In this document: in pieces, positions 6,154 through 62,771 of the stretch | Position numbering within the stretch: the stretch's first letter is position 1 | How the letters are laid out: every line of letters starts with the position of its first letter | Source of the DNA: an uncultured Poribacteria bacterium | Lineage (GTDB): Bacteria; Poribacteria; WGA-4E; WGA-3G | Assembly (NCBI GenBank): GCA_951828385.1 | Contig: OX639973.1 | Coordinates: 2,241,561 to 2,305,560, forward strand | Direction of reading: 5' to 3' | Length of the DNA stretch: 64,000 bases | The notes under the pieces: generated by a model | Databases searched by the model: none | Seen by the model: only the letters and a program-made list of their open reading frames with translations | What the model was told of the DNA's origin: nothing | Position numbers and translations under genes: made by a program

Positions 6154-6183
6154 CTATATAGGCTACCCGTAAACAGATCGTCC

Positions 6184-7574: not shown

Positions 7575-7603
7575 TTGCTTTCTTAACAAAGTTATAGTAT
7601 AAT
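7575..7603 (+). promoter_or_regulatory. Candidate sigma70-type promoter for uvrA (TTGCTT-17 bp-TATAAT). A GTTA-N12-TAAC palindrome overlaps the -10.
   Basis: Read directly: ttgctt(7575-7580) tcttaacaaagttatag tataat(7598-7603), about 50 nt upstream of the uvrA SD AGGAGG. Lies in an AT-rich 440-bp divergent intergenic region. Confidence 0.4.
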
Positions 7604-7652
7604 TAGTAACAGAAAATTCTCTATTTTTTAACAACAAAATTAGGAGGCATGT

Positions 7653-20472: not shown

Positions 20473-20739
20473 GATTTTTACCCTCAATATTCGGATTCTG
20501 ATTGGTAGCAGTATATCACATTTGGGTTTTTGTATATTCGTAAAATCTATACTCTTACGTAAAGATAATCTAAAACCAAATCGTACTATCATAGTTCAGA
20601 ACCATTCAATTCTCCATTTTTCGCTCGAATCTTCACCACAAGGCCCGGTAGGTGCGGTTTTGGATGCACTTTACTGAGGCACATGGATAAAAACATATCC
20701 AAAAACCAGTATTCAGGAGATCCTTTTGTGGATTGTCGC

Positions 20740-44412: not shown

Positions 44413-46041
44413 TTACTTCCGAATTAACATCTTACGCGTCGCAGTAAACTGCCCAGCTTTGAGCGTATAGAAATAGACTCCACTTGCGACTGGCTCTCCG
44501 TGAGCATTCTTACCATCCCAATAGGCAGCACGGTCTCTACTCTGATAGACACCTGCAGGCATTTCGCCTAACGGCAAACTCCGAACTAAAGCACCGTTCG
44601 CAGTATGAATGAAGACAGCGACTTCCGCTGGTTGCGCCAACTGATAAGGTATCCAAGTCTCTGGATTGAAGGGGTTGGGGTAGTTTGCCAAGAGCACTGT
44701 TTTTGGGGGTGTCGGTCGTGCCATCCGTGTCCCAACTGCCAAAAAGCGTTCTAAGATCGCGATCGTCTGTGGATCCGCACCGACATCCTGTGCCTCTTGG
44801 ATCCACTGCTGGACATCTTCTGCAGTGAAGGAGAAATCGTGTAGATGCTGTGCAAGAATAGGAGCCGCTTGGGAATCTACTGGTGCTTGGGCATCCACTG
44901 CCTTAGCAACAACAATGAGGTCTTCAATATTAACGACCCCATCTTTGTTGACATCCGCGCGTGGGTTTGCGCCATCTACGACAGTTTTTCCGTAGTTCTC
45001 TCCCACCTCAATAATGTCAAGATATGTGACACTACCGTCCCCTGTTATATCAACCGCTGCGAGTGGCTCCCACAAGCGGATTGTGTCGTCATCACTGCCA
45101 CTCACAAGAAGTGACCCATCAGAGTTCCAAGCAATTGTATTAACACTAGCGGTATGCCCTTTCAGAGTGGCTTTGTGTGCGCCAGTGGTGGAGTCCCATA
45201 AGCGGATGGTATCATCGCTACTGCCACTGGCAAGGATTGCCTCGGTTGGATGGAATGCCAACGTATGGACGTTACCGGTATGCCCTTCCAAGACGTGCAG
45301 CGGGGAATCCGTGTCCGTTGGGTCCCAAATACGGATGGTGTCATCGTTGCTTGCACTCGCGAGCAGCGTTCCATCAGGACTCCACGCAACCGATCTAACA
45401 GTATGCGTATGTCCGCGAAGTGTAGCAATGTTGGCACCGTTGTCTGGGTTCCACAAACGGACGGTACGGTCTCTACTTGCACTGGCGAGCAGCGTTCCAT
45501 CAGGACTCCACGCAACCGACTCGACATCATTCCGATGCCCCCGCAGTGTCCGAACGGGTCGACTTTTCCATGCGTCCCATGTTAAATCCCAGATACGGAT
45601 TGTGTCGTCATTGCTCCCGCTGGCAAGGATGGAGCTCCCCGGTTTAAAGGACAGCGTATTGACAGTGTTTGTATGTCCTGTGAGGTAACCTCTTATGTCT
45701 CCGTCATCTGTGTAAGACATCCCAATATAAGGGCGGAAAAAGAGTCCGCCGGCATAAACGACAAAACGCGAGTCATGCGATGAGATCGCAATATCAGAGA
45801 TTAAGAAGAGATCCACTTCGGTATGCCAAGGTTGTGCACCCGTGTCAAGATCCCAAAAGCGAAGGTCGCTATCGCCTCCCACACTGATAAGTGTGCTATC
45901 GTCTTTGAATGCCACTGCAGAGACATGAATTTTATGCCCGCTGAGCGTCCGAGTATGGAAGTACTCTTCGGCAGCGGCAAAAGGTAAAGTAACTGTGAAA
46001 ATGGACAGTAGCGTTAAAATCAAAAGGCTTATTTTTTTCAT
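44413..46041 (-). CDS. Secreted WD40 beta-propeller protein with a dockerin-like repeat and a T9SS-type (Por_Secre_tail/FlgD-Ig-like) C-terminal domain
   Basis: Signal peptide, about 7 WD40 repeats (LRGHTHTVRSVAWSPDGTLLASASNDDTIRIWD etc.), dockerin-like DVNKDGVVNIEDLIVVAKAV, C-terminal NYPNPFNPETWIPYQL...GVYFYTLKAG. Confidence 0.8.
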   Translation of the reverse strand: MKKISLLILTLLSIFTVTLPFAAAEEYFHTRTLSGHKIHVSAVAFKDDSTLISVGGDSDLRFWDLDTGAQPWHTEVDLFLISDIAISSHDSRFVVYAGGLFFRPYIGMSYTDDGDIRGYLTGHTNTVNTLSFKPGSSILASGSNDDTIRIWDLTWDAWKSRPVRTLRGHRNDVESVAWSPDGTLLASASRDRTVRLWNPDNGANIATLRGHTHTVRSVAWSPDGTLLASASNDDTIRIWDPTDTDSPLHVLEGHTGNVHTLAFHPTEAILASGSSDDTIRLWDSTTGAHKATLKGHTASVNTIAWNSDGSLLVSGSDDDTIRLWEPLAAVDITGDGSVTYLDIIEVGENYGKTVVDGANPRADVNKDGVVNIEDLIVVAKAVDAQAPVDSQAAPILAQHLHDFSFTAEDVQQWIQEAQDVGADPQTIAILERFLAVGTRMARPTPPKTVLLANYPNPFNPETWIPYQLAQPAEVAVFIHTANGALVRSLPLGEMPAGVYQSRDRAAYWDGKNAHGEPVASGVYFYTLKAGQFTATRKMLIRK

Positions 46042-46120
46042 CTGAATGCATCCTTTCCCGAAAACACTTTCGGGTGTAGATAATTTATGTTGCCCTAAAT
46101 TGCTCAAACTTTCAGTCGTT

Positions 46121-46179
46121 GTTTAATGATACAATTTGAAGGTCAAAAAGGTGCATAATGGGAAAAAAAATTGAATGAG
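46121..46179 (-). promoter_or_regulatory. Conserved ~55-bp upstream element, copy A (between the ECF-fusion 1 stop and the WD40 gene start)
   Basis: gtttaatgatacaatttgaaggtcaaaaaggtgcataatgggaaaaaaaattgaatgag. Matches copy B 49280-49338 at about 50 of 59 positions. On the coding (minus) strand it carries TGCACC-18-TATCAT. Confidence 0.55.
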
Positions 46180-46220
46180 ATGAAAATAAGCGGTTTTTGA
46201 TGGGAGAATTGCTGGGAATA

Positions 46221-49200
46221 TCAATCGTTTTTCTTCTCAAGCGCGGCATAAAACATCCCGCTCCGTTCGGTAACAATATAAAGCCTGTTACGCTTGACAG
46301 CAACAGAAATGACGCGGCTTGGTACGTTTGGCGAGATCTGTTCCCATCTGCCCCGAGTATCCAATTGATAGGCACCCGTATCGCCAGCACCATAAACGGT
46401 TATATCATCTACGGCAACTCGGGCTATGACGGTGTGTGTACCACCTTTATCGGTGATTGCGCGCCAATTTTCACCGTCTGCCGATGTTAAGACCCCCGCG
46501 TCTGTGGCGACATAAACCGTTGAACCCGCAAAAACAATATCGTTGAAATGTTCAAATCGAAGTGGCAGTGTTGCGGTCAGGTCTTTCCATGTGTTCCCGC
46601 TATCAAACGATCGGAACAGATGTCCATCCCGTTTGCCAACGTAGACGGTTTCACCTGAAACAGCCAGAACGAAATGATCGGGCCCCTCATGGTTAGTAGG
46701 TGCGTCAATGTCTACCAGCCCAGTGTCGAACCATTCAGGTTCGCCGCGTCTCCACCGCAGGAGCCGCCCCTGATATTCCACATAGAACGTATCACCGCTG
46801 ACTGCAAACGCGCTGTGAGATGCTATGGACTCGCGGGTTGTGTCTATCGATTTATCGGCTTTCTCAGGATCGTTAGGGGCAGCGTCGGGTATATTTCTTT
46901 CCGACATCTCTTGTGATGCAGTTTTTGGAGGCTCAATAGAAAGATTTTCACCCAAAACAGGGGCTTCTGGCATAAGCACCAGCACACCGCCATTCTTAGA
47001 AAGATGGAAGATGCGCTGCTCGGTACCTTCTATGTCTACGGAAAGTGCGGTGCCGATGCAGTAGAGTTTATCGTCAGAAATTGCCAGCTGCGAAGAACGG
47101 AGTAGAAGACCGACAGCCAATACCGATCCTAATTCTGGTGTTAATTGATCAGGGCTGAATCGCAGGTCTCTCCATGACATCCCACCGTCGGTGGATTTCG
47201 CGATATTTGTACCGGTATAGGCGTAGAGTGCGTTTTTGAATGCGACTAAGTTAGATATCTGGGTTCCGACCATGCCTGTCATAAACGGATGCCACGATTC
47301 GCCAGCATCGGTTGAACGGATAAGTCCAAAAGGACTGGCTTTGAACAGGATATTTTCGTTCATGCCAATAGCGGGGAATACACTCAGCATAAACGAATTC
47401 ATCATTGAAAGCGGATCCAATTTTTTGTATCCGTGGTTTGTCCATGTTTCGCCGCCGTCAGTCGATCGGCATTGGAAGCCGGTGTATCCCAATGCCCAAA
47501 GCGTTTTTCCAGCAGTAAGGACCTTAATGCCCGGGGATAGCATCGTCAAGACTGGCTCGCTTGTAGGTGTGATTTCAGTCCACGAATCGCCGAAATCGGT
47601 TGACCGGAAAATTTCCCACATAGACTGCCCGGCAGACACCTCTTCGCGTATTTCATCCTCTTTAAAGGCTCCCAAGTCGGGACCTGTCCCGACATAGAGG
47701 TTGCTTTCAGAAACCGCTAAGGAGTGGATAGCCTTAGTGGTCGTTAGCGGCAATTTTTCCCACATATCCATTGCCGAATTATGCCCTGGATTGATACGGT
47801 AGAGTCCCTGATTCGTTCCGATAAACATTGTGTTTTCAAGAGTAGCCAAAGCAAAGATTTTTCTATCCGTCACTTCACCACCGAGGGGTGTCCACTGCTG
47901 TCCCCTATCTTCGGATCGGAAAACACCTTTATCTCTCAGCAGGAGGTATAAGGCTTCATCCGTTACGGCCAATGCGACAGCAATACCTTCGGGGCGGGTG
48001 CCAATCGGCTCCCACATCTCGCCGCTATCGGTTGAGATAAGTACTTTATCATCAGAAATAAGATAAAGGGTTCCGTTTTGCTCCGCCATCGGTATCATGG
48101 GGGGTGCCTCCGTAGGTGTCTCCAAAGTTGTTGTAGGGCTGAGGAACGTCCATGCTCGTGTGTCTGGCGTTAATCTATAGACACCGAGACGCGAAGCGGC
48201 GTAGATATCGCCATTTGAACTTACCAGTAAGCCGCCTACGGGGCCGCTCGCTGGTACGCTCGCGGGTCTCCACTGCTGTGGTGTTGTCAGTGGTTCCTTT
48301 TCTATCTGCGCGACAGCAGGGACAACAGGCTCTGAAACTTGCGGCCCGGCACCGCTGCCCCGACCCGTGGTATCAGAACGTCCGGCTTGGTTCCGTAGGT
48401 CCGGTTCCGCCTGCGTATCAATAACAATGGGTGTGTCAATAATTTCAACAGTGGTTTCCGATTGGGCATTCAAGTTGTAAGGTCTCTGAAAGCGACTCAG
48501 GTATTGGGACCCGACACCGATCATCAGCATTATAAGAATGGTAGCGGTGCCAAAAGCGATCCAGGGTAGCAACGGTTTTCCAACCGAAGGTGGTGCTGGT
48601 TTGATGTCGGCAACTTGCTGCATAATACGCTCAATGAAATTGGCAGGCATCTGGACGTTTCCAAGCGTTTCGCTAATCAGGTGCTCTTCGGCTTGTAAAC
48701 GCTCCCGTGCCCGGCGAAGCCGACTTTTAATGGTGTTCACCGATACCCCTAAGAAATTGCCAATCTCCTTCGCCGTCATTTCACCGAGGTAGTAGAGCGT
48801 TACCACCGTCCGTTCACTCTCTGGCAATGTTTCCAGAAGCTCTTTGACGATTTCGTGGCGATGTTCCATCGCTTCCGCCTCCCGTTGCTCCGATACATAA
48901 CGTCTATAAGAAAATGCCTCTACGTCCGCTACAGATGTGTCATCCAGGGATTGCATCGCGGGTTTGTTGCTTTGATGCCACCTCTTGCAAAGATTACTCG
49001 CAATCACATAAAGCCATCCAGCAAACTGGCTGGGATTCCTCAGCCTTGCAAGGTTTTTGTATGCTTGGAGGAAGGCATCTTGGGCAATCTCTTCAGCGAT
49101 GTGAAAATCGCCAATCTTCCGCCACGCCAGCGCGTGAACGCTTTTTTGGTACTTTTGGACCAAAGCACTAAATGCCGCTTCATCACCCGACAAAATTCTG

Positions 49201-49229
49201 TGAATCAGTTGAACATCGTTTTCCACCAT
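46221..49229 (-). CDS. Membrane-tethered ECF sigma factor fused, via one TM helix, to a large extracytoplasmic BNR-repeat beta-propeller domain (paralog 1)
   Basis: N-terminal ~190 aa has sigma70 regions 2 and 4 (HIAEEIAQDAFLQAYKNL...; LGEMTAKEIGNFLGVSVNTIKSRLRRARERL). TM helix PLLPWIAFGTATILIMLMIGV. At least 8 Sx(D/S)xGxxW BNR motifs in the remaining ~800 aa. Start taken at MVENDVQ (49229) by homology with paralog 2. Confidence 0.8.
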   Translation of the reverse strand: MVENDVQLIHRILSGDEAAFSALVQKYQKSVHALAWRKIGDFHIAEEIAQDAFLQAYKNLARLRNPSQFAGWLYVIASNLCKRWHQSNKPAMQSLDDTSVADVEAFSYRRYVSEQREAEAMEHRHEIVKELLETLPESERTVVTLYYLGEMTAKEIGNFLGVSVNTIKSRLRRARERLQAEEHLISETLGNVQMPANFIERIMQQVADIKPAPPSVGKPLLPWIAFGTATILIMLMIGVGSQYLSRFQRPYNLNAQSETTVEIIDTPIVIDTQAEPDLRNQAGRSDTTGRGSGAGPQVSEPVVPAVAQIEKEPLTTPQQWRPASVPASGPVGGLLVSSNGDIYAASRLGVYRLTPDTRAWTFLSPTTTLETPTEAPPMIPMAEQNGTLYLISDDKVLISTDSGEMWEPIGTRPEGIAVALAVTDEALYLLLRDKGVFRSEDRGQQWTPLGGEVTDRKIFALATLENTMFIGTNQGLYRINPGHNSAMDMWEKLPLTTTKAIHSLAVSESNLYVGTGPDLGAFKEDEIREEVSAGQSMWEIFRSTDFGDSWTEITPTSEPVLTMLSPGIKVLTAGKTLWALGYTGFQCRSTDGGETWTNHGYKKLDPLSMMNSFMLSVFPAIGMNENILFKASPFGLIRSTDAGESWHPFMTGMVGTQISNLVAFKNALYAYTGTNIAKSTDGGMSWRDLRFSPDQLTPELGSVLAVGLLLRSSQLAISDDKLYCIGTALSVDIEGTEQRIFHLSKNGGVLVLMPEAPVLGENLSIEPPKTASQEMSERNIPDAAPNDPEKADKSIDTTRESIASHSAFAVSGDTFYVEYQGRLLRWRRGEPEWFDTGLVDIDAPTNHEGPDHFVLAVSGETVYVGKRDGHLFRSFDSGNTWKDLTATLPLRFEHFNDIVFAGSTVYVATDAGVLTSADGENWRAITDKGGTHTVIARVAVDDITVYGAGDTGAYQLDTRGRWEQISPNVPSRVISVAVKRNRLYIVTERSGMFYAALEKKND

Positions 49230-49279
49230 CAGCATTCTCCATGTCTCACGCATAAACGTGATTGTGTTTACATTCAAAT

Positions 49280-49338
49280 TGTTAATGATACAATTTTAAG
49301 GCGGAAAGGGTGCATGATTTGAAAAAAAATTGATACCC
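49280..49338 (-). promoter_or_regulatory. Conserved ~55-bp upstream element, copy B (about 55-110 nt upstream of the ECF-fusion 1 start)
   Basis: tgttaatgatacaattttaaggcggaaagggtgcatgatttgaaaaaaaattgataccc. See copies A and C. Confidence 0.55.
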
Positions 49339-49380
49339 ATAGGGTTTGGATTATAGTAAATTCCAAAAATAACACACTTT

Positions 49381-49575
49381 CAACACCGCAAAACCGCACC
49401 TACCGGACCTGGGAACTGAGACGGGATTCAAGAGGGTTTTGAAGTCCTCAAGGTTTCCGCGTAGTATCCGGTTCGGTTAGGAATGCAGGTCGCATTTGGG
49501 CGTGTACGCCGCGATGCACGTCGCATCTGGGCGTGTACGCCGCAAAAACCGAACCTACCGGGCCTGGGTCTGAAA
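49381..49575. repeat. Complex intergenic repeat region. Direct copies of CAAAACCGCACCTACCGGRCCTGGG flank a 2x direct repeat GTCGCATYTGGGCGTGTACGCCGC.
   Basis: 49389-49413 and 49545-49570 carry the flanking motif. The inner repeats are at about 49485 and about 49517. A further inverted copy of the flanking motif lies at 20643-20665. Confidence 0.6.
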
Positions 49576-49684
49576 CGGTTAAGGTAGGTCGTACGGGAAT
49601 GGATATGTTAAAAGTGCGCGCTAAATGTAGGAACAAAAAAGTCCTACTTTTTCAAGTTCAACTTTAAGATTTTGTGTGTCAAGT

Positions 49685-50596
49685 TCAAAACGCTTCTGAC
49701 TTGACTTGGCCCCATGTCGTTGTTAAAGAGGTATCGGGACGAATTTCAAGTCCACCTTCAGGATTGCGATTAAGATCAACACCGGTTCCACCAATCACAG
49801 CAGCACCATTCATGCCGATGAGGGTCTTCCCATTCCCAGACGTATCTTCAAAGCGATCCGCGCCTTCCTTGTCATTGAAATCCCAGAGTGCTAACGTGTG
49901 TGCATCAGCAAAAAAACGAGGCGGTGGATTAAACGGATTGTCGCCCTGTTCGGCGCAGTCATACCGAGCGATATTTGAAAACCTTATCGCATCAATTTCG
50001 CCTTGAAAACTACTTACTTGGAATAACAACGCACCGTTAGGTGCCACAAACTTATCCTCACCATATCCGCCTACGACGAAATCTTGAACGCCTTCAGGTC
50101 TATTGATATGCAAAGACACCCTGTCCACAAGAGGAAGTCTCCGGCCTTGACTAATTCGATTGTTGGACGCATGACAAAGCATGCCATTCTTGAAAATGAT
50201 TGCTATATAGTTCCATTGATCTTTCTCGACTGCACTATCAGTTCCTGCAAGTCCGTCAGCTCTGTCTCCTGAAAGATATGCCTGACGATAACTGCAAAGT
50301 TGATTTTTTTCGAGTAGACACTGATCTCTTGCCTTTAATCCGATGGAAACTTGCTGAGTGAGAATAAGGTCTTTATCTTTTTGCTTCGGTTCATCTTTCG
50401 GATAGAACCATACTTCAACAGTAAACGCGTGGGTGCCTTCCGGGAAAATATGCCCATGTTCCGCAAAAGGGAGTATTGCATAGTCATCTTCACCATCCAA
50501 CGACAAAACACCACCGGACGGCTCGAAAGAAAGAACAGGTACAACTAAGCTGAACAATAACACCGTACTGAGTAAGCACTTAAAATTAATAAACAT
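49685..50596 (-). CDS. Secreted LamG/concanavalin-A-like lectin-fold protein with a C-terminal ...TTTWGQVK tail
   Basis: Signal peptide. LamG_3-like hallmarks (SLDGEDDYAILP...FTVEVWFYP...WNYIAIIFKNG). SD GAAGGAGAG. Confidence 0.65.
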   Translation of the reverse strand: MFINFKCLLSTVLLFSLVVPVLSFEPSGGVLSLDGEDDYAILPFAEHGHIFPEGTHAFTVEVWFYPKDEPKQKDKDLILTQQVSIGLKARDQCLLEKNQLCSYRQAYLSGDRADGLAGTDSAVEKDQWNYIAIIFKNGMLCHASNNRISQGRRLPLVDRVSLHINRPEGVQDFVVGGYGEDKFVAPNGALLFQVSSFQGEIDAIRFSNIARYDCAEQGDNPFNPPPRFFADAHTLALWDFNDKEGADRFEDTSGNGKTLIGMNGAAVIGGTGVDLNRNPEGGLEIRPDTSLTTTWGQVKSEAF

Positions 50597-50657
50597 CAGA
50601 AACTCTCCTTCAACGGTTATTTATAGTAAAGTTTAGAATTAATTGGGCACTCTCAAA

Positions 50658-50690
50658 CAGTCTGAATACCTATAACAGGCATTCAGACTG
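50658..50690 (-). terminator. Hairpin terminator candidate downstream of the PD40a gene
   Basis: cagtctgaata-cctataacagg-cattcagactg has a 10-11 bp stem. On the minus strand it is followed by a T-rich tract (TTTG). Confidence 0.35.
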
Positions 50691-50697
50691 GCACAAA

Positions 50698-51121
50698 CTA
50701 AAAGTTTGTGGTACGAATGTGTCTATTTATTTTAGGATTCACTATAACATATTTTTTCAGTTGTCCCCACGTCACTGCCAGTTTACCTTGGGGTTGAACC
50801 GATAAATTGCCGTGGTTCGGCACCTCTTCGCCCACAAAAAGAGAGTGTTCTGAACTAAAGGCAATCCATTGGCTGTCCGGAGACCAAGCCGGTCTTTTGC
50901 AGCCCCCTCGGTTCGTCAGCCGCTTCACATTTCCGCCATCTGCGTCTATTCTGTAGATGTCCATCTCCCCGTTGCGTTCGGCGATGAATGCGATCCACTT
51001 CCCATTCGGAGACCAAGCGGGCCATATATCTCTACTCTCGTGGAACGTCAACTGACGTTCTACATTTGTTCTCACGTCCCTCACATAAAAATAGAATTGT
51101 TACAATGATTAGAAATTTCAT
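50698..51121 (-). CDS. Exported PD40/TolB-like repeat protein (paralog a), frameshifted at a T5 run between the lipoprotein-type signal peptide and the PD40 domain. C-terminal ...VTWGQLKK tail.
   Basis: The ORF-track part 50698-51084 starts at GTG. Upstream in another frame, SD GGAGG + ATG 51119-51121 encodes MKFLIIVTILFLCEG... (lipobox-like). Deleting one T of tatttttat restores a continuous ORF. PD40 motifs WPAWSPNGKWIAF and PAWSPDSQWIAF. Confidence 0.6.
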
Positions 51122-51300
51122 TAGTTTCGTCACCTCCGCTCTACACAAACATTCGTATGATATAGTAGATTCTGTAATTACTTATACACTCGTATGGTAG
51201 CGCGAACCGTGAAGTTGCGTCCTATACTGCCACAGGGGACCAACGGTTTCCTATGCTACAAAAGTGTAAATTTATTTTCGGATTTTACTATAAATCACAT

Positions 51301-53184: not shown

Positions 53185-53218
53185 AAATGCATCTCTTTCT
53201 TGTGTTATTTCTCTTTCT

Positions 53219-57229: not shown

Positions 57230-57379
57230 AGGTATAACTAAAGTTTGGACAATCGATTTGTGTATCAAGTAGCGTTTTCAAGGGGCTTGGTATTTTTCTG
57301 TGAGTTCTGTACCCAGGCAAACGCGGAAAAAACTATAACAGGTTAGTTACACAAGAGACACAGCCTAACAGGAGACCAT

Positions 57380-57574
57380 GCTACACAAGAGACACAAACT
57401 GGAAGTTTATGCTACACAAGAGACACAAACTGGAAGTTTATGCTACACAAGAGACACAAACTGAAAGTTTATGCTACACAAGAGACACAAACTGGAAGTT
57501 TATGCTACACAAGACACAACTGGAAGTTTATGCTACACAAGAGACACAAACTGAAAGTTTATGCTACACAAGAG
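57380..57574. repeat. Intergenic 31-bp tandem direct repeat, about 6.3 copies (gctacacaagagacacaaactggaagtttat)
   Basis: Units at 57380, 57411, 57442 (G>A variant), 57473, 57504 (28-bp short copy), 57532, and a partial seventh. Degenerate partial copies lie at 57341-57379. No unique spacers. Confidence 0.9.
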
Positions 57575-57663
57575 GGTATTCAAGTGGAAACCTGTGTCTA
57601 TTTTAAAATTGTCCAAACTTTAGTAGGTATAAGATATAATCTCCATTTCAAATTTTGTTCCCT

Positions 57664-60603
57664 CTATTTACGAGATAAGTTGTCTCCCGCTTCCGCAAGC
57701 GGAATCTGAAACATCCCGTTGTGTCTGGTAACAATATAAAGTGTGTCGTTTTTAACAGCGAGTGAGAGGACTTTATCTGGCACGCTTGGAAAAATCTGTT
57801 CCGATTGTCTACGGTCCTCTAAACGATAGACACCGGCATCACCAGCCCCATAAATTGTGGTACCATCAACAGCAAATCTGTCTATAACGATACGCTCGCC
57901 CGCGGTATCGGTCAGGACACGCCAATATGCGCCGGTTTGTGAAGCTAAAATACCTCTGTCCGTTGCGACGTAAGCCGTTGAATCGACAAAAACGATCTCC
58001 TTGAAATGGGTAAAACGTAGGGGCAGGCTGGGGGTAATGTCGCGCCAACTGTCGCCGCCATCAAGCGACTGAAAGAGCCTACCGTCTCGCTTACCGACGT
58101 AGACGGTTTCCGCTGAGACCGCCAATTTGAACCCATTTTTCGAGCCGTCATCAGCCCGTTTCCCGGTATCTATTAATCCGGTATTTTTCCATTCAGGATC
58201 ACTCGGTTTCCAATTAAAGAGTTTCCGCTTGTATTCCACGTAGAAAGTATCACCACTGATTGCAAACGCACCGGCTCTCTCATAGTTTTCACGAAAGGAC
58301 AAATCCCTCATCAATTTACGGTCCTTTTCAGGATCACCAGAAAAGGACATTCCCTGTGCTACCGCAATCTCCTTTAGCACCGCAGGAGACAGATTTCTCT
58401 TACCAAAATCGGGTACGCCTTGAACAGGGATAAACGTATTATCACCAGATAAATGGAAGATACGGAGGTTGTCTCGCCCAGACTCAATAGCATAAAGAAC
58501 GTCGTCAACAATCACAAATTTTGAATCAGTATCGAAGTCGGTGTTAGGAGATTCTCTTTTTGAGGGTTCAGATGCTTGTTCGGCGTAATCAACTGGAACA
58601 GGTGTCCAAGATTCGCCGTCATCAGCAGATTGAACCATATTGCCGTTAGCATGTACATAGAGGCTATTATTGAATACCACCAGATCTCGTGCTCCGGTGC
58701 CGACCATGCCGTCCATAAAATGATGCCACGATTCACCCGCGTCGGTTGTGCGATAGAGACCGGAGTTTCCGGTCTTGTAGAAGGTATTTTTATCGAATGC
58801 TAAATAGGCATAGGTATTTGAGACAGTGCCAAGATTTGTCCAAGTTATCCCGTCATCTTTTGAACAAAATAGCCTGAGACCGCGTGCTAAAATTGTTTCG
58901 CCTCTAACAGCCATTGCCATAGCAGATGCTGCTATAAGGGGATATTTTTTGTCTGTAGGCGTTATCTCGGTCCACGACGTTCCGAGATCGTTTGATTTGA
59001 AAATTCTGCCTGCCCGTGACAGATCAAGTCGCATGTGATCCTCAACTTTGCGACCTGTTCCGACATAGAGAGTATCTTCAAAGGCCACCAAGTCGTGTAC
59101 GGCTCTGGTTGTATCTACCGGTAACTGTTCCCAAACATCGGCGTTGAGGCGGTAGAGGCCTCTGTCTGTGCCAGTGAATACCGTCTCTTTAATCGCAGCG
59201 AGTTTGTAAATTTCTCTACCCGTTAATCCCGTGTTCACGGGTGTCCAGTGTTTTCCAGCATCGGTGGATCGGAAAACGCCTCTCTTCCAAAGGGCGAGAT
59301 ACATCGTAACATTCGCGGGTGCGTTGCGTCCATCTGCTGCATCTACCACGATGAGTTCAGCAGGGTGTCCTTCTGGCCGGTGCCCTAATGTATTCCACGT
59401 CTCGCCATCATCGGTTGAAGCTAATAGTTCATTGCCAGCGATGATATAGAGGGTGCTTGCATGCTCTGCTATAGGCACTCGCGGCATTTCGTTTGGAATA
59501 TTGACGTTTACGGGTGTCCAGAGAGTTGCATCTGCTGTTAACCTGTAGATGCCTATTGACGAATTAACGTAGAGTGTTTTGTTAGATGTCTCAAAGATGT
59601 CAAACACGAATCCGCCTGGCGGTCCGCCCATCTGTGTCCACGGCGCAGTCGAAAATGTAGCGGAGAAATCCGCCGTTGTTGTGGTTACGACAGCCGCCTC
59701 AGCAGTCTGTAAGCCGGTCCCGATGTTTTTGGTGGCGGTCGTCGTGCGTCCGACCTGATTTCGGACAGCTGGTTTGGAAAGCAGATGGAGCATGATAGGT
59801 GCGTCAACGATTTCAACCGTCGGTTCAGATTGTGCTTCAAAACTGTATGGCTGCTGGAAGCGCGCGAGATACTGATGATGCGTACCGAGCATCAAAACTA
59901 TCAAAAGCACAGCCGCGCCAAAAGCCGCCCACGGTAGCAACGGTTTCGCGACCTGCGGCGGTGTCAGTTTCAGATCGGCGACGTGCCGCATGATGTGCTC
60001 TGTTAGGTGAGTGGGTAATTGGAAATTCCCAAGCATCTCACGAATTAAGGATTCTTCGTTCCGCGCCTGTAAACGCTTCCGCGCCCGTTGAAGCCGACTC
60101 TTGATTGTGTTCGCGGATACGCCTAAGAAGTTGCCAATTTCTTTGGCAGTCATCTCGCCGAGATAGTGGAGCGTTACGACGGTACGTTCACTTTCGGGTA
60201 GTTTTTTCAGGAGTTCCTTAACGATTTCGTAGCGGCGTTCCGCGGCTTCCGTTTCTCGTTGCTCTAATACATAATGTTTATAAGAAGATTTTTCTACTTC
60301 TGTGCGAGATATTTTTTCCAGTGATAGCATTGGCGGTTTTTTATTTTTGAACCACCGAATGCACATCCGATTCGTAATTACATATAACCACCCTGCAAAT
60401 TGGTTGGGGTTTTGGAGTGTCGTGAGTTTTTTGTGGACTTGGAGGAAGGTATCTTGTGTAATCTCTTCAGCGATATGAAAATCGCCAACTTTCCGCCACG
60501 CGAGTGCGTGGACACCCTTTTGGTATTTTCGGACTAAAGCAGTGAACGCCGCCTCATCACCTGCTAAGGTTCTCTGGATTAATTGAACATCATTTTCTAC
60601 CAT
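57664..60603 (-). CDS. Membrane-tethered ECF sigma factor fused to a BNR-repeat beta-propeller extracytoplasmic domain (paralog 2)
   Basis: N-terminus MVENDVQLIQRTLAGDEAAFTALVRKYQKGVHALAWRKVGDFHIAEEITQDTFLQ... is highly similar to paralog 1. TM PLLPWAAFGAAVLLIVLMLG. BNR motifs STDDGETW, STDAGKHW, SNDLGTSW, SKDDGITW, TTDAGESW, SADDGESW, SLDGGDSW. Its SD AAAAAGGAG lies inside the upstream PD40b tail. Confidence 0.8.
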   Translation of the reverse strand: MVENDVQLIQRTLAGDEAAFTALVRKYQKGVHALAWRKVGDFHIAEEITQDTFLQVHKKLTTLQNPNQFAGWLYVITNRMCIRWFKNKKPPMLSLEKISRTEVEKSSYKHYVLEQRETEAAERRYEIVKELLKKLPESERTVVTLHYLGEMTAKEIGNFLGVSANTIKSRLQRARKRLQARNEESLIREMLGNFQLPTHLTEHIMRHVADLKLTPPQVAKPLLPWAAFGAAVLLIVLMLGTHHQYLARFQQPYSFEAQSEPTVEIVDAPIMLHLLSKPAVRNQVGRTTTATKNIGTGLQTAEAAVVTTTTADFSATFSTAPWTQMGGPPGGFVFDIFETSNKTLYVNSSIGIYRLTADATLWTPVNVNIPNEMPRVPIAEHASTLYIIAGNELLASTDDGETWNTLGHRPEGHPAELIVVDAADGRNAPANVTMYLALWKRGVFRSTDAGKHWTPVNTGLTGREIYKLAAIKETVFTGTDRGLYRLNADVWEQLPVDTTRAVHDLVAFEDTLYVGTGRKVEDHMRLDLSRAGRIFKSNDLGTSWTEITPTDKKYPLIAASAMAMAVRGETILARGLRLFCSKDDGITWTNLGTVSNTYAYLAFDKNTFYKTGNSGLYRTTDAGESWHHFMDGMVGTGARDLVVFNNSLYVHANGNMVQSADDGESWTPVPVDYAEQASEPSKRESPNTDFDTDSKFVIVDDVLYAIESGRDNLRIFHLSGDNTFIPVQGVPDFGKRNLSPAVLKEIAVAQGMSFSGDPEKDRKLMRDLSFRENYERAGAFAISGDTFYVEYKRKLFNWKPSDPEWKNTGLIDTGKRADDGSKNGFKLAVSAETVYVGKRDGRLFQSLDGGDSWRDITPSLPLRFTHFKEIVFVDSTAYVATDRGILASQTGAYWRVLTDTAGERIVIDRFAVDGTTIYGAGDAGVYRLEDRRQSEQIFPSVPDKVLSLAVKNDTLYIVTRHNGMFQIPLAEAGDNLSRK

Positions 60604-61211
60604 CCGGATTCTCCTTTTTCAGTTGTCCCCAGGTCGTCGATAGCAACGCCGGCTGCGGCGAGACCGGCAACGCATACGCTGGATTAAACCAATCCGCGTT
60701 GGCGTTATCACCCCGGCGCGTGAGTTGTTCTGGAACACCGTCGTCCGAAGCGATTTTGAAGAGTTGTCTGAAACCACGAACCCGTTTATCGTAAATGAGT
60801 TCATTCCCGTGCGGTGCCCAGGCAGGATTAGACGCGAAGTTGCCGCCTCCATCTGCAATCTTCCGGAGTCCGCTACCATCTTGGTTCACAACATAGACCC
60901 CCATAGTGTGTCCTATCTCTTGCCTACCTGTCCAAAAAAAGGCTATCTGCGCGCTATTGGGTGCCCAAGCTGGGTCAAACATCCCAATCTTCCCCGGAAG
61001 AATTTTCTCTTCTACATGCGTTTGTAGATTAATAATCTCGACCCTGACGTTCGGTGCTTGGAGATTTCCGTTTTCAGCCCAAACGAACTTGGCTGCCATA
61101 AAGGCTATCTCAGAACCGTTAGGAGACCACGCATGCTTTGGCAAAAAGTGGACGCATCATTCCACACATCAGCATCCAGAAGATGATAGAAAAAACCAAC
61201 TTCAATCTCAT
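60590..61211 (-). CDS. Exported PD40/TolB-like repeat protein (paralog b), frameshifted at a T5 run after the signal peptide. C-terminal ...STTWGQLKK tail. Its 3' end overlaps the ECF-fusion 2 start by 14 nt.
   Basis: The ORF-track part 60590-61144 starts at TTG. Upstream, GGAGGAATCGGT-ATG (61209-61211) encodes MRLKLVFSIIFWMLMCGMMRPLFAKAC... in the +1 frame. Removing one T of ctttttgcc fuses the two. PD40 motifs AWSPNGSEIAF, PAWAPNSAQIAF, PAWAPHGNELIY. Confidence 0.6.
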
Positions 61212-61292
61212 ACCGATTCCTCCGATTCGTAATTTTAGGACCAATGATTCAAAGCCGTCATTCTGTCGCGCGTGTCGGCATGGCACTATTAT

Positions 61293-61352
61293 CCAATTAT
61301 TAAAGAGACTATTTTTAAGGGCAAAGGGTGCATAATTTGAAAAAGTGGATAG
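61293..61352 (-). promoter_or_regulatory. Conserved ~55-bp upstream element, copy C (about 80-140 nt upstream of the PD40b signal-peptide ATG)
   Basis: ccaattattaaagagactatttttaagggcaaagggtgcataatttgaaaaagtggatag. Shares the core TTTTAAGG-N4-AAAGGGTGCATNATTTGAAAAA with copies A and B. Confidence 0.5.
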
Positions 61353-61397
61353 TCCTTATGAACACTCCCAGTTAATTTTAGAAAAAATCACAACGTA

Positions 61398-62771
61398 TCA
61401 CTTCGATTGGACAGTATAGGAAACATTATCAAAATAGACATCGACAAAATGTCCACCGCGCTGAAATGAAAGGATGCCGAACCGATCAAAAACGGCACCA
61501 CCCGCGCGAGCATCGGGTTTGAGATTCAGCGAGACTGTTTCGTCATTGAACGTGACAGTCACCTGTCCGTCTCCATTGTTGGCATCTGGTGCGTAGGCGA
61601 GTCGCCACTGATGCGCTGTGCGAGAAGGTTTAATCACGGGTCCGGTCTTCATAATTTCGTGCTGACTTTTAGCGTTGGCATAGACAGGACGGAAGTAATG
61701 TCCGATACGACTGGGTCCCTCAACCATGATGCCGACAAAGTTGCTCGGTGGGGCGCCGATATAGGTTTCCGAATTGAACCAACCGATAAGCACGGCACTG
61801 TCAGCACTTGCCCGAAGCATTGCGATTTTTCCGGATGCCTCAAGTGTATCCTCCATCGTTAGATGACCGATTCGATCCGCATAATACCCCGCCTGTTCAG
61901 GTTTCCTCTCGTCTGCGCGCCAAATCAGCCCACCAATTTCGCCGAGTGTTCCACCGGCGTGGTTCGTTTGGCTCCATCCAAAATTATGGTAGGGTCGGAT
62001 TTCGCTGTCATCGAATGTGATGCGGTTGCGGTTCTCTTCCCAAGCCGGATCGTCGGTGAAATCGTAGGATTCTCCATCAATGCTCAGGTCATCGAGATAG
62101 ACGTTCATCCCCTTCCCGGCAACCTGCATGTTCACCATACCGAAGCGATTAAAGGTGGCACCGTCGGCTTTGTGTCCGGGTGCCAGTGGTGCCGTATAGG
62201 TTACACCGTCTATGACAAAGGTTATCTTGCCGTTGCTATCGGCACTGTCCGGGTCGTAGGTTAGTGACCACGTATGTACTGTGCTGTCCGCCTGCTCTGG
62301 TGGCGTTTTCGTGGTTTGATAGCGTTCACCTTCAAAGGTCGCGCTGCCTCCTGTCAGATAATTCTGCGTCCCGTATTCAAAGAACACCCAATATTTTCCG
62401 CCGTTGCCGTCCAATCGGAACACCAGCGAATTGGGGGTTCTCCAACCTCTTGAATCGGTATTGAACCAACCGATCAGCATCCCACTACTGCTATCGGCTT
62501 CGGTGACAGCGAATTTGCCAGACGCTGTGAAGGGGTCGTTGAGTGTTTTCGTGGGGATAACTGTGGCGTAAGTCGCTGGTGTCAGTGAACGTGAGATATG
62601 TCCGCCGATCTCACCGGGTGTCTCGCCGCCTGCATGATTCGTGCGACTGTAGCCGAAGTCTTGCACAACGGTTCGAGCGTGCTTTTCGGCGGTTCGATTG
62701 CCTCTACCTTCCCAGTTTGGATCGGCAGTGAAGTCTTGGAAGCGGTTGGCGGTTGCTTGTGTAGTGAGCAT
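61398..62771 (-). CDS. Hypothetical protein made of two tandem ~225-aa homologous domains (unknown family)
   Basis: Internal duplication is visible by eye: FTADPNWEGRGNRT...NHAGGETPGEIGGHI...ASGKFAV...IGWFN...FNRFGMVNMQVAGKGMNVYLDDLS versus FTDDPAWEENRNRIT...NHAGGTLGEIGGLI...ASGKIAML...IGWFNS...FDRFGILSFQRGGHFVDVYFDNVS. No signal peptide detected. Confidence 0.55.
   Translation of the reverse strand: MLTTQATANRFQDFTADPNWEGRGNRTAEKHARTVVQDFGYSRTNHAGGETPGEIGGHISRSLTPATYATVIPTKTLNDPFTASGKFAVTEADSSSGMLIGWFNTDSRGWRTPNSLVFRLDGNGGKYWVFFEYGTQNYLTGGSATFEGERYQTTKTPPEQADSTVHTWSLTYDPDSADSNGKITFVIDGVTYTAPLAPGHKADGATFNRFGMVNMQVAGKGMNVYLDDLSIDGESYDFTDDPAWEENRNRITFDDSEIRPYHNFGWSQTNHAGGTLGEIGGLIWRADERKPEQAGYYADRIGHLTMEDTLEASGKIAMLRASADSAVLIGWFNSETYIGAPPSNFVGIMVEGPSRIGHYFRPVYANAKSQHEIMKTGPVIKPSRTAHQWRLAYAPDANNGDGQVTVTFNDETVSLNLKPDARAGGAVFDRFGILSFQRGGHFVDVYFDNVSYTVQSK

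Follow-up and report, generated by a model that had tools for sequence, protein, structure and literature searches.

Predicted membrane-tethered ECF sigma factors with propeller ectodomains, and a conserved ECF-type promoter motif, in a recombination-prone locus of a Poribacteria bacterium

The window, i.e. the whole 64-kb stretch of Poribacteria DNA analysed here, contains a locus in which every gene lies on the minus strand (Table 1). Two genes encode ECF sigma factors fused to a large C-terminal region, and around them are found genes for exported proteins with WD40 or LamG_3-like domains, dockerin-bearing hydrolase-like proteins, PD40 remnants, repeats, and copies of an element of ~52 nt.

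Table 1. Genes and other features of the locus, with positions in the window.
Feature	Position	Strand	Remarks
WD40 propeller, type I dockerin and T9SS type A C-terminal domain; exported	44413..46107	-	Probable start ATG 46041
ECF-type promoter motif, copy 3	46117..46168	-	Before WD40-dockerin gene; TGCACCt, ~17 nt, GTATC; PWM 50.8 bits
ECF fusion 1 (ECF1)	46221..49229	-	1002 aa, intact; Pfam and NCBIfam domain matches, AF2 models, Foldseek
ECF-type promoter motif, copy 2	49276..49327	-	Predicted autoregulatory promoter; PWM 60.2 bits
226-nt insertion	49354..49579		31-nt x2 repeat at 49483-49543; stands in place of a relative's PD40 gene
LamG_3-like exported protein	49685..50596	-	303 aa; C-terminal tag ...SLTTTWGQVKSEAF
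PD40a remnant	50698..51121	-	Deletion scar; ORF 50698-51084, 128 aa
GHL10/DUF6259-like protein with double type I dockerin	51301..53232	-	643 aa
LRR-GHL15-dockerin paralogue, disrupted	53219..55248	-	ORFs 53776-55248 and 53219-53743; one frameshift
LRR-GHL15-dockerin protein, intact	55238..57268	-	676 aa; probable start ATG 57223; LRR_4, GHL15 and Dockerin_1 pass
31-nt tandem repeat	57378..57574		6.5 copies; between ECF2 and LRR-GHL15 gene
ECF fusion 2 (ECF2)	57664..60603	-	979 aa, intact; architecture as ECF fusion 1
PD40b remnant	60590..61211	-	ORF 60590-61144, 184 aa; ends ...STTWGQLKKENPDGRK
ECF-type promoter motif, copy 1	61294..61345	-	Upstream of PD40b-ECF2 operon; PWM 50.6 bits
Conserved protein, family unassigned	61398..62771	-	457 aa, internal duplication; upstream neighbour of ECF2 cassette

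Both ECF fusions gave matches above the Pfam cut-offs for Sigma70_r2, Sigma70_r4_2, Sortilin-Vps10 and BNR, passed the NCBIfam cut-off for TIGR02937 (sigma70-ECF), and contain a single hydrophobic helix each, C-terminal to sigma region 4. In ECF fusion 1, sigma regions 2 and 4 (residues 1-182) are followed by two short helices, a TM helix (residues ~225-243), a juxtamembrane segment (residues 244-320) that is conserved yet disordered, with a pLDDT of ~30 in the AF2 models of the fusions, and a double seven-bladed BNR/Asp-box propeller (residues 321-1002). The top Foldseek matches of the ectodomain were GH74 xyloglucanases (E ~1e-22), and the next ones the periplasmic domains with which the Bacteroides hybrid two-component systems BT4663 and BT4673 sense glycans. 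The sigma domain matched AlgU, SigW and sigmaE, and these proteolysis-regulated ECFs are its nearest relatives. The first-pass annotation had proposed membrane-tethered ECF sigma factors with a BNR double propeller of sortilin/GH74-like type; the domain matches and the lone TM helix of each protein sustain the first part and the Foldseek matches the second, and the models support ECF fusions 1 and 2 being membrane-tethered sigma factors with a GH74-like double propeller as ectodomain. Between the two, sigma region 4 is 88% and sigma region 2 72% identical, and the propellers share 41-46% of their residues. In the stretch leading from sigma region 4 to the membrane, neither the Pfam search nor the AF2 models revealed a recognisable anti-sigma domain; only the two short helices are found there. 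The locus has no linked gene for a site-1 or site-2 protease.

Species-representative genomes hold at least 585 copies of the sigma-fusion family, and 501 clusters were counted at 50% identity (E <= 1e-30). The best 80 genomic copies are all in Poribacteria, with several per chromosome, some of them in tandem. ECF fusion 1 has homologues in Poribacteria at 94% identity and below, and ECF fusion 2 has orthologues at 77% (L029) and 72% (L004). Ectodomains among the best 150 representatives are of different types: 46 are BNR, 38 WD40, 8 LRR/GHL15, and 36 other or unassigned; a LamG_3 ectodomain was seen in one representative, P0369. The chassis formed by the sigma domain, the TM helix and the juxtamembrane segment is 50-65% identical across members with differing ectodomains, and recognition-helix residues are near-invariant in 77 diverse members. 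Since the DNA-reading parts are near-constant while the ectodomain varies among paralogues, a single promoter type appears to serve many different sensors. The WD40, LRR-GHL15 and LamG ectodomains of paralogues are homologous to free exported proteins of the locus: the free LRR-GHL15-dockerin protein of the window aligns through its own residues 43-624 with the ectodomain of P0313 (41% identity), and it also aligns with P0300 (49% over 461 aa). As far as sequence can tell, the GHL/LRR-dockerin genes, located between the two cassettes in this strain, share ancestry with the ectodomains of sister sigma fusions.

The repeated element had been described as a ~55-bp sequence with two copies, one before each cassette; instead, there are three copies, and copy 2 is directly before ECF1, hence inside cassette 1 and not ahead of PD40a. 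Its core is TGCACCC, ~17 nt, GTnTC, and the family-wide consensus reads TTATGCACCC, ~17 nt, then (C)GTnTCaTTAAT. Of 74 upstream regions, 33 contain TGCACCC, where 1.9 would be expected. Scanning 1.29 Mb with a PWM yielded 135 sites, of which 131 have the sense orientation. Among the sites are 77 before sigma fusions (77 Poribacteria loci), a count that is partly circular because the training set consisted of sites upstream of sigma-fusion genes, 7 before WD40-dockerin genes, 8 before PD40 genes, 4-5 before LamG or tag genes, and 12 before ABC-2 permease genes. Outside the window, the motif also fronts 3-keto-disaccharide-hydrolase-like genes. Independent support is smaller and comes from the sites at non-sigma genes, from the strand bias and from loci L079-L084; loci outside the training set also have the motif upstream of sigma fusions. 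Besides the three copies, neither strand of the 64-kb window has a further site of >=14 bits (0 expected by chance); all three window sites fall in the present locus, and the 44 kb of housekeeping genes contain no site. Copy 3 is conserved in L078 and L083, and the ECF2 orthologue of L035 has the motif at the matching relative position. From its sequence and placement, we take the repeated element to be a conserved promoter of the ECF type, and not a recombination repeat; another factor could in principle bind to it.

Downstream of ECF1, the WD40-dockerin protein was confirmed as the WD40/dockerin/T9SS-CTD protein first described, with 229.7 bits for Pfam WD40 and 24.3 bits for TIGR04183 (cut-off 23). 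Dockerin_1 was not among the matches listed for it (25 of 57 Pfam families); its orthologues carry a dockerin-like D.N.DG.V motif, and a probe with the dockerin-bearing C-fragment matches WD40-gene orthologues in L001, L002 and L021 (tblastn). In L001, L002, L015, L078 and L083, its orthologue is the gene that directly follows the ECF1 orthologue. It is the only dockerin gene of the window with both motif and conserved synteny, and a predicted member of the regulon. The LamG_3-like protein scores slightly below the Pfam cut-off (25.3 bits); homologues (n=369) carry PF13385 and, wherever they are named, belong to Poribacteria. A previously undescribed C-terminal tag, KLxTTWGxLK, is common to neighbouring exported proteins. 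Tagged genes share the strand of the sigma fusion in 117 of 118 cases and are found <=8 kb from it in 42 of 77 loci (none in the other 35), and reverse look-ups from LamG homologues found a sigma fusion 1-9 kb away in 3/3. The linkage with PD40/LamG-type exported proteins thus recurs; the strict 'PD40 then ECF' module is not what is conserved, PD40 being immediately upstream in only 4/77 loci, and the immediate neighbours of sigma fusions are mostly 'other' genes across loci. The 457-aa protein upstream of the ECF2 cassette matched no Pfam or NCBIfam family; in L035, an 87% identical orthologue lies directly upstream of an ECF2-like gene.

Both PD40 genes, initially taken to encode exported proteins, are truncated and have frame-shifted signal peptides. 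PD40a joins pieces of three genes: a signal peptide read in a different frame (ATG 51121), a stretch with 87% identity to residues 91-170 of a PD40 protein of 349 aa, and a tail that is 93% identical to the final 28 residues of a 3-keto-disaccharide-hydrolase-like protein of 275 aa and carries the tag; L078 positions 5247-7645 and 8763-9793 have no counterpart in the window. In PD40b, the frame of the signal peptide (ATG 61211) is lost at a T5 run, and the remainder corresponds to 181 residues from the C-terminal end of a PD40 family whose members normally have 322-348 aa. Its overlap with ECF2, already noticed at first, is 14 nt, and in L004 an intact 348-aa PD40 gene overlaps the ECF2 orthologue with the same promoter motif ahead. 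From these alignments, both PD40 ORFs are decayed leftovers, and relatives still have the corresponding arrays intact. The 226-nt insertion, absent from L078 and L083, holds two copies of CCCAGGyCCGGTAGGTkCGGTTTTGCGG, a short unit found also near sigma-fusion genes in L040, L055 and L082. The 31-nt tandem repeat, present as reported, is absent from the 77 related loci searched and has no Rfam match. Gene content differs among relatives that are 94-99% identical; together with the deletion scars and the frameshift, this bears out the view of a recombination-prone locus.

We consider it reasonably likely that these proteins form a large, Poribacteria-specific and so far uncharacterised family of one-component membrane-tethered ECF sigma factors, which are probably autoregulated and released by proteolysis. 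From cytoplasm to exterior, each would comprise a SigW/AlgU/RpoE-type sigma domain, a ~40-residue linker, the TM helix, the juxtamembrane segment and an extracytoplasmic sensor, and as long as it is tethered, the sigma domain would be unable to reach RNA polymerase. When the ectodomain meets a ligand or undergoes a mechanical event, the juxtamembrane segment would become accessible to a site-1 protease, a site-2 (RseP-type) protease would make the second cut, and the freed sigma domain would drive transcription from the family-wide promoter. ECF sigma factors usually autoregulate via their own promoter, and the promoters of the sigma-fusion genes would likewise be targets, giving positive autoregulation. 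Other targets would be the WD40-dockerin-T9SS gene and the PD40b-ECF2 operon in the window, and PD40, LamG_3, 3-keto-disaccharide-hydrolase-like and ABC-2 permease genes elsewhere.

An unlikely alternative is that the fusions sense glycans and switch on the interleaved GHL/LRR-dockerin genes, in a polysaccharide-utilisation regulon like that of SigI/RsgI and the cellulosome. SigI/RsgI biomass sensors control dockerin enzymes (PMC10328401), and RsgI sensors carry module types of the enzymes under their control (PMC10328401, PMC4711584); they are a functional analogue of the locus, in which the resemblance of the GHL15/LRR proteins to sister sigma-fusion ectodomains mirrors RsgI. The likeness of the fold to GH74 and to glycan-sensing domains of hybrid two-component systems, and the motif before the WD40-dockerin gene, are also in its favour. 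The dockerin genes are largely as first described, namely three hydrolase-like proteins, two with LRRs and one of these disrupted: the GHL10/DUF6259-like protein passes for Dockerin_1 (36.4 bits) and falls below the cut-offs for GHL10 and DUF6259, and in tblastn, residues 14-462 and 463-676 of the intact LRR-GHL15-dockerin paralogue match different frames of the disrupted one, i.e. a single frameshift at residue 462/463. In the close strain L083, GHL-dockerin genes also adjoin LamG-ECF1, among them a 96% identical GHL10/DUF6259-like gene and a second paralogue of it. However, no motif of >=14 bits lies upstream of GHL-dockerin genes in the window, L047 or L083; these genes are missing from 75/77 related loci and from the 94% identical L078; and the GC content of their block is 0.42-0.46, versus ~0.49 in the flanks. 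The initial suggestion that the sigma factors switch on dockerin-tagged enzymes is therefore unsupported for the GHL-dockerin genes, one of which is frameshifted and whose GHL families are hypothetical hydrolases.

We also give little credence to the ectodomains being accidental, i.e. to duplicated sigma-TM modules that landed in, or recombined with, genes of exported proteins, as has been put forward for Planctomycetes ECFs, so that the ectodomain would act mainly as a membrane tether or bulky plug, with release by turnover or general stress on the envelope and no specific ligand. This would fit the unrelated folds (BNR, WD40, LRR-GHL15 and LamG) carried by one chassis and matching exported proteins of the same loci, as well as the heavy recombination and decay of these loci; the diverse C-terminal extensions of Planctomycetes ECFs offer a precedent (PMC7671368), and with a single promoter type in all paralogues, sensor-specific outputs are not evident. 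Yet across many species and paralogues, at identities of 43% to 94%, the BNR ectodomain is kept at full length and with intact Asp-boxes, which argues for selection on it, and both sigma fusions of the window are intact while their neighbours have decayed.

That the propeller is an active, surface-displayed GH74-type glycoside hydrolase and the sigma domain secondary or vestigial is very improbable: GH74 xyloglucanases are its best structural matches, and there is a partial match to the NCBIfam BNR model 'F510_1955 family glycosylhydrolase', but the latter is below cut-off (122.6 bits vs 175), identity to GH74 enzymes is only 13-16% with no sequence-level match, and conservation is highest in the sigma domain, which is preceded by a conserved promoter of its own. 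A chance juxtaposition of functionally unlinked repeat proteins in an accessory dumping ground, which the differing gene content of close strains, the three remnant or frameshifted genes and the 'other' neighbours in most loci might suggest, is already disfavoured and hardly credible given the motif shared by sigma fusions and WD40-dockerin, PD40, LamG and ABC-2 genes across loci, the common strand of tagged genes, the reverse look-ups, and the ECF1-then-WD40-dockerin order in at least five genomes.

For the proposed proteolytically released sigma factors, close functional analogues exist. The fused sigma/anti-sigma protein IutY is activated by Prc and RseP, and proteolysis is presumed to activate SCO4117 (ECF52) as well, which is likewise fused (PMC8999054). 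Both are precedents for a one-protein membrane sigma factor. With these two, the Planctomycetes ECFs and SigI/RsgI in mind, the initial statement that the locus resembles no described signalling system was too strong; rather, it adds a variant to the known signalling by membrane-linked sigma factors, in which swappable sensors would be mounted on one chassis.

The two paralogous sigma fusions of the locus, ECF1 (1002 residues) and ECF2 (979 residues), both passed the Pfam thresholds for Sigma70_r2 (47 and 44 bits; cut-off 24), Sigma70_r4_2 (56 and 57 bits; cut-off 25.7), Sortilin-Vps10 and BNR, as well as the NCBIfam threshold for TIGR02937 (96 and 94.6 bits; cut-off 42.9), in agreement with the first-pass annotation, which had read them as sigma factors joined to BNR propellers. 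They contain sigma regions 2 and 4 only, with models above threshold, and are ECF (group 4) sigma-70 factors. The solved structures closest to the sigma domain (AlgU-MucA, SigW-RsiW and sigmaE-RseA) belong to classic ECFs regulated by intramembrane proteolysis. A hydrophobic TM helix at about residues 225-243, also modelled as a helix, is followed by the propeller ectodomain, so that sigma factor, TM helix and extracytoplasmic part lie in one polypeptide. In a second model, built for residues 1-330 with a more diverse alignment, the sigma domain is confidently predicted (pLDDT about 90), region 4 is followed by two short helices (182-188 and 198-208) within a linker of ~40 residues, and residues 246-330 are disordered. 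We found no Pfam or NCBIfam match to a FecR-like or zinc-finger (ZAS) anti-sigma domain between region 4 and the membrane. A folded domain with autoproteolytic activity next to the membrane, like that of RsgI, was rejected, as AF2 models give no fold for this segment (pLDDT about 30).

The AF2 model of the ECF1 ectodomain (pLDDT 70-90) has about 14 four-stranded blades. Its top 21 Foldseek matches were all GH74 enzymes (E 1e-22 to 1e-20; target-normalised TM-scores 0.44-0.55), with xyloglucanases ranked first, so that, as far as the fold goes, the GH74-like double propeller proposed earlier is right. The likeness is that of a tandem pair of seven-bladed Asp-box propellers; in contrast to GH74 enzymes, the window domain is fused to a sigma factor and shows no family-level sequence match. 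Identity to GH74 is 13-16%, too low to place catalytic aspartates, and a phmmer search of the ectodomain against solved structures returned no GH74 chain, the best match being HCF136/Ycf48 (E 7e-4), a weak Asp-box similarity. A second Foldseek group comprised periplasmic sensors from two hybrid two-component systems of Bacteroides, BT4673 and BT4663, a weaker structural match (TM-score about 0.3, against about 0.5 for GH74). These sensors likewise join an extracytoplasmic tandem beta-propeller, a TM helix and a cytoplasmic transcription-control module in one polypeptide, but their output is a kinase-receiver-AraC cascade, whereas that of the window fusions is a sigma factor.

The 49% overall identity of ECF1 and ECF2 is unevenly spread: sigma region 2 has 72% and sigma region 4 has 88%, but the propellers 41-46%. 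The same pattern holds across the family, in which the DNA-reading parts are constant and the ectodomains variable. In a search covering 1.84 billion cluster representatives, 501 clusters matched with E <= 1e-30. There are at least 585 genomic matches, the best 80 all in Poribacteria assemblies; the best homologues of the large proteins are likewise proteins from Poribacteria MAGs, which places the window in Candidatus Poribacteria, and all named family members come from this phylum. The family is multi-copy, with several members per chromosome and tandem copies (one related locus, L007, alone has three). Many matches cover only residues 1 to ~300, that is, the sigma domain, the TM helix and the juxtamembrane motif, at 50-65% identity within proteins of 600-1400 residues, and continue into WD40 propellers, LRR arrays, GHL15 or LamG_3. 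Among the best 150 representatives, 46 ectodomains were BNR, 38 WD40, 8 LRR/GHL15 and 36 other; a WD40 ectodomain was present in 32 of the 55 variants lacking BNR. The conserved juxtamembrane motif spans roughly 45 residues (RFQKPY...TVEIxDAPIV...KPDxRNQ). The ectodomain of one cluster representative, P0313, aligns to residues 43-624 of the LRR-GHL15-dockerin protein of the window with 41% identity, a span that takes in all of the mature protein ahead of the dockerin, and that of a second, P0300, shows 49% identity to it over 461 residues. The dockerin-bearing "hydrolases" of the locus are thus unfused relatives of the sensors that sister fusions carry.

All genes of the locus are encoded on the minus strand, and positions 1-44 kb of the window have a housekeeping content (UvrA, UvrD, haem synthesis, S41/PDZ peptidase, aldehyde dehydrogenase).

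Features of the locus in transcription order (window coordinates)
Feature	Position	Strand	Basis or remark
457-aa protein, unknown family	61398-62771	-	first in transcription order
Promoter motif before PD40b-ECF2	61294-61345	-	weight matrix
PD40b, overlapping ECF2	60590-61144	-	PD40 remnant
ECF2 sigma fusion	57664-60603	-	Pfam + NCBIfam
31-nt tandem repeat	57378-57574		between ECF2 and LRR-GHL15 gene
LRR-GHL15-dockerin protein	55238-57268	-	Pfam
Frameshifted LRR-GHL15-dockerin paralogue	53219-55248	-	
GHL10/DUF6259-like protein with dockerin	51301-53232	-	
PD40a remnant	50698-51084	-	
LamG protein	49685-50596	-	LamG_3 just under cut-off
226-nt repeat-bearing insertion	49354-49579		just upstream of ECF1 promoter
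Promoter motif before ECF1	49276-49327	-	weight matrix
ECF1 sigma fusion	46221-49229	-	Pfam + NCBIfam
Promoter motif before WD40-dockerin gene	46117-46168	-	weight matrix
WD40-dockerin-T9SS C-terminal domain protein	44413-46107	-	last in transcription order

A repeated element of ~55 bp had been described ahead of each of two cassettes. The repetition is real, but there are three copies rather than two: the copy assigned to PD40a lies directly before ECF1 instead, and the third precedes the WD40-dockerin gene. In 74 related loci we examined the 320 nt that precede the sigma-fusion genes; the heptamer TGCACCC occurs in 33 of these regions, against 1.9 expected. The aligned sites have a T-tract, then ATTATGCACCCTTT, about 10 variable bases, and a 3' part formed by AAAAT, one base, GT(A/G)TC or CGTC, and ATTAAT. 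This arrangement reads as putative -35 and -10 boxes a constant distance apart, as is typical of ECF promoters. That the ~52-nt element is a mobile or recombination repeat was rejected, as the -35/-10 structure is kept before paralogues even though the rest of their intergenic DNA cannot be aligned.

A weight matrix of the motif found exactly three sites in the 64-kb window, all of them in the locus and on the coding strand, and 135 sites in 1.29 Mb of related loci, where fewer than one was expected by bit score. Nearly all (131/135) lie on the strand of the sigma gene. Behind them lie 77 sigma fusions, 12 ABC-2 permease genes of a single family, 8 PD40 genes, 7 WD40-dockerin homologues, 4-5 genes for LamG or other tagged proteins, and a small remainder; two ectodomain-swapped fusions are also preceded by the motif (L023 at 13347 and L052 at 4075). 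The sigma-gene hits are partly circular, since it was on such sites that the matrix was trained; independent support comes from the non-sigma targets, the strand bias, the lack of sites among the window's housekeeping genes, and the occurrence of the motif in loci retrieved in another way (L079, L082 and L084). A scan for generic sigma-70 promoters and terminators found no more of them than in shuffled sequence, and so was no help in delimiting operons. The predicted regulon in the window comprises ECF1, the PD40b-ECF2 operon and the WD40-dockerin-T9SS gene. The ABC-2 protein, probably a regulon member too, is a recurrent membrane protein of ~470 residues (ABC2_membrane_2, E 2e-31) with a long charged insertion, found in L006, L027, L032, L038, L049, L054, L056, L063 and L070, and not in the window.

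Some genes of the neighbourhood share a second signature. The C-terminus of the three small exported proteins of the locus consists of TWGQ(L/V)K with a few residues after it (49700-49717, 50755-50772 and 60617-60634), a motif that six-frame translation found nowhere else in the window. The longer consensus of this tag is phi-[S/P]-V-x-P-x-x-x-K-L-x-T-T-W-G-x-[LIV]-K followed by 1-8 residues (phi, hydrophobic); one tag peptide is ...GKLAVTWGQLKK. The tag ends 118 of the 930 ORFs near sigma-fusion genes in 77 related loci, and none in the other 44 kb of the window; 117 of the 118 are on the strand of the sigma gene and 104 have a signal-like N-terminus. Tagged genes occur in 42/77 loci (at least one per locus), often in tandem arrays, and their folds are unrelated (PD40 propeller, LamG_3, 3-keto-disaccharide-hydrolase/DUF1080 and Kelch). 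The tag itself is matched by neither Pfam nor NCBIfam models. In reverse look-ups from LamG homologues, a sigma-BNR fusion was found within 1-9 kb on the same strand in 3/3 cases. The linkage of PD40 and ECF genes suspected earlier has to be restated: neighbourhood and promoter do recur, but PD40 lies directly upstream of a sigma fusion in only 4/77 loci. As the immediate neighbour is variable, the conserved relationship is the neighbourhood with its shared promoter and not a fixed gene pair.

The two PD40 ORFs themselves had been taken for exported proteins. Their PD40 domain passes Pfam, yet both are remnants rather than intact genes. Upstream of each there is a ribosome-binding site with a signal-peptide ORF in another frame, both ending at a T5 run. 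PD40a is a chimera of three gene fragments: the signal peptide of a 3-keto-disaccharide-hydrolase-like family, residues 91-170 of a 349-residue PD40 protein (87% identity), and the last 28 residues of a 275-residue 3-keto-disaccharide-hydrolase-like protein (93% identity). In L078, a related locus whose ECF1 is 94% identical, ten intact genes are found here, including a 3-keto-disaccharide-hydrolase-like gene, five PD40 genes and a LamG gene; in a DNA alignment the window lacks L078 positions 5247-7645 and 8763-9793, and it also lacks a 662-residue gene found downstream of the WD40 gene in L078. Of PD40b, whose family normally measures 322-348 residues, only the 181 C-terminal residues are left, while in L004 an intact 348-residue PD40 gene overlaps the ECF2 orthologue just as PD40b overlaps ECF2. 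The frameshifts at T5 runs may be sequencing errors; whether they are or not, the large internal deletions are real. Together with the rearranged gene content of L083, these deletions and remnants uphold the plasticity attributed to the locus. The original interpretation thus stands for the sensor-sigma fusion and for plasticity, but not for intact PD40 genes or for the nature of the repeat.

The remaining domain calls were mostly sound. Dockerin_1, LRR_4, GHL15 and WD40 all pass Pfam thresholds, while LamG_3 and GHL10/DUF6259 gave matches just below their cut-offs. Type I dockerins are present in three proteins (36.4, 44.5 and 39.7 bits; cut-off 22.9). The dockerin-like similarity of the WD40 protein appears in its orthologues as a D.N.DG.V motif and in tblastn matches to a dockerin-bearing C-terminal fragment used as probe, in L001, L002 and L021. 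The T9SS sorting domain of the WD40 protein is marginally confirmed (TIGR04183, residues 476-562, 24.3 bits against a cut-off of 23). No cohesin was found among the scanned subset of the window's ORFs. One LRR-GHL15 paralogue is indeed disrupted, by a single frameshift at residue 462/463.

The proposal that the sigma fusions control the GHL-dockerin hydrolases is unproven; the weight matrix found no promoter site before any GHL-dockerin gene in the window, L047 or L083. The block of these genes plus the PD40a remnant (50001-58000) has a GC content of 0.42-0.46, compared with 0.48-0.52 in the flanks, and a more negative GC skew, which fits a compositionally distinct insertion. The GHL-dockerin block is absent from L078 and from 75/77 loci, and L083 has a rearranged form. 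We treat it as a putative passenger, evolutionarily related to the system.

The 31-bp tandem repeat noted earlier is real, with 6.5 copies and 94% matches in the spacer of 395 nt that separates ECF2 from the LRR-GHL15 gene; its unit is absent from the 77 related loci searched. A CRISPR array was ruled out, as the repeat is tandem without spacers, and so were known RNAs for this and the intergenic repeats, an Rfam scan of 44-64 kb having found nothing at E <= 0.1. The 226-nt insertion is absent from the two closest relatives and contains a 31-nt unit in two copies and two copies of CCCAGGyCCGGTAGGTkCGGTTTTGCGG. Its short unit recurs in intergenic DNA beside sigma fusions in three other Poribacteria loci (L040 7491-7507, L055 11387-11403 and L082 5810-5826) and may thus be a small mobile or repetitive element. 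Elsewhere in the window, a 42-nt tandem repeat (30638-30815; 4.2 copies, 94% matches) lies within an ORF of 315 residues (30563-31510, no Pfam match) and would encode a repeated 14-residue unit.

The 457-residue protein that heads the locus gave no match in Pfam and NCBIfam searches. It is internally duplicated, with two FxDPxWExxxNR...NHAGGxxGEIGG halves, and an 87% identical orthologue is found directly upstream of an ECF2-like gene in L035. Next to it, at 62881-63987, is the C-terminal specificity domain of a Type ISP restriction-modification enzyme (PF18135, E 8e-104), in an ORF that continues past the window end; the L035 orthologue has 1043 residues and the same relative position. The ORFs at 18580-20592 (670 residues) and 24121-25620 (499 residues) had no Pfam match at E <= 1e-5. 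A housekeeping-like S41 tail-specific peptidase with a PDZ domain (Prc/CtpA type) is encoded at 15509-16960. Proteases of the Prc class recognise the C-terminal ends of proteins and make the site-1 cut in the fused sigma factor IutY.

The first-pass annotation knew of nothing similar. BNR double-propeller and LRR-GHL15 ectodomains are indeed not mentioned in the ECF papers (PMC7671368, PMC8999054), the ECF reclassification paper has no mention of BNR, propellers or Poribacteria, and a search of the accessible literature library found no paper linking Poribacteria with ECF sigma factors; but IutY, the Planctomycetes ECFs and SigI/RsgI are comparable. The closest mechanistic relatives appear to be IutY (Pseudomonas putida, ECF243), activated through Prc and RseP, and SCO4117 (Streptomyces coelicolor, ECF52), probably also activated by proteolysis, both of them fusions of sigma and anti-sigma factor (PMC8999054). 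They share with the window fusions an N-terminal ECF sigma, one or more TM helices and an extracytoplasmic C-terminal part in one polypeptide. Unlike them, the window fusions have only about 40 residues before the membrane, without a FecR-like or zinc-finger anti-sigma, and a double propeller of roughly 680 residues outside; their family is Poribacterial, highly multi-copy and tied to one promoter type, and proteolysis would be common to all only by inference.

By description, rather than by ECF group models, the closest evolutionary precedent seems to be the Planctomycetes ECFs, which have diverse C-terminal extensions, including WD40-like repeats in ECF57 (PMC7671368, PMC8999054). There too, sigma regions 2 and 4 are kept while recent paralogues differ greatly in their C-terminal extensions, and WD40-type extensions are common (38/150 best representatives here); in contrast, the Poribacteria chassis also keeps the TM helix and the juxtamembrane motif of roughly 45 residues. 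The closest functional analogy is SigI/RsgI of Clostridium thermocellum, whose paralogous sensors share module types with the dockerin enzymes that they control and pass the signal across the membrane through a juxtamembrane cut and then RseP (PMC4711584, PMC10328401, PMC12203970). Both systems have multiple paralogous membrane sensors with interchangeable modules matching secreted dockerin-bearing proteins, and the output is transcription of secreted and surface proteins, only predicted for the window. However, RsgI is a separate anti-sigma working with a SigI-type sigma, while in the window the sigma itself is tethered and of ECF type, and we detected neither Pfam RsgI_N nor a folded autoproteolytic SEAL-like domain in the fusions. 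The resemblance is functional only, and the fusions are not SigI/RsgI family members.

From the precedents of ECF and fused sigma/anti-sigma factors (PMC8999054) we infer the following steps for the window fusions. The membrane-tethered sigma would be inactive; a signal at the ectodomain would lead to a cut in the conserved juxtamembrane segment and then to one within the membrane, freeing the sigma domain. The motif would be the family's own promoter, giving positive autoregulation. We consider it improbable that this extends to a many-sensors/one-promoter circuit with modules copying its exported-protein classes and the tag as the signal that closes the loop. Dozens of tethered sigma paralogues would then read one promoter, each showing a different surface module (BNR propeller, WD40, LRR-GHL15 or LamG). 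The tag would be recognised either by the propeller ectodomain, as sortilin-type propellers read the C-termini of their ligands, or by a PDZ-containing tail-specific protease that cuts the juxtamembrane segment, much as DegS reads the C-termini of outer-membrane proteins. If true, the system would keep track of the load of its own exported or surface proteins, or of its contact with the host matrix.

In bacterial signalling ECF sigma factors form the third pillar, and distinct promoters and anti-sigma partners normally insulate their paralogues from one another. The Poribacteria, mostly uncultured sponge symbionts, are known for "eukaryote-like" WD40, LRR, BNR and LamG proteins. Specialists would be interested in the use of one promoter type by many sensors, in ectodomains that mirror the exported proteome and in an undescribed C-terminal tag, a short sequence without described function that marks a large set of exported proteins. 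The defined 52-nt promoter and the sigma domain of roughly 190 residues are parts that could be tried in a heterologous host, and the tethered sigma offers a concrete path, open to testing, by which the surface of an uncultivable symbiont could be linked to its gene expression. Across the phylum, one sigma chassis seems to have been expanded to hundreds of membrane-tethered versions, which appear to hold promoter specificity constant while exchanging their outside domains, copies of the Poribacteria's own repeat and hydrolase-like proteins.
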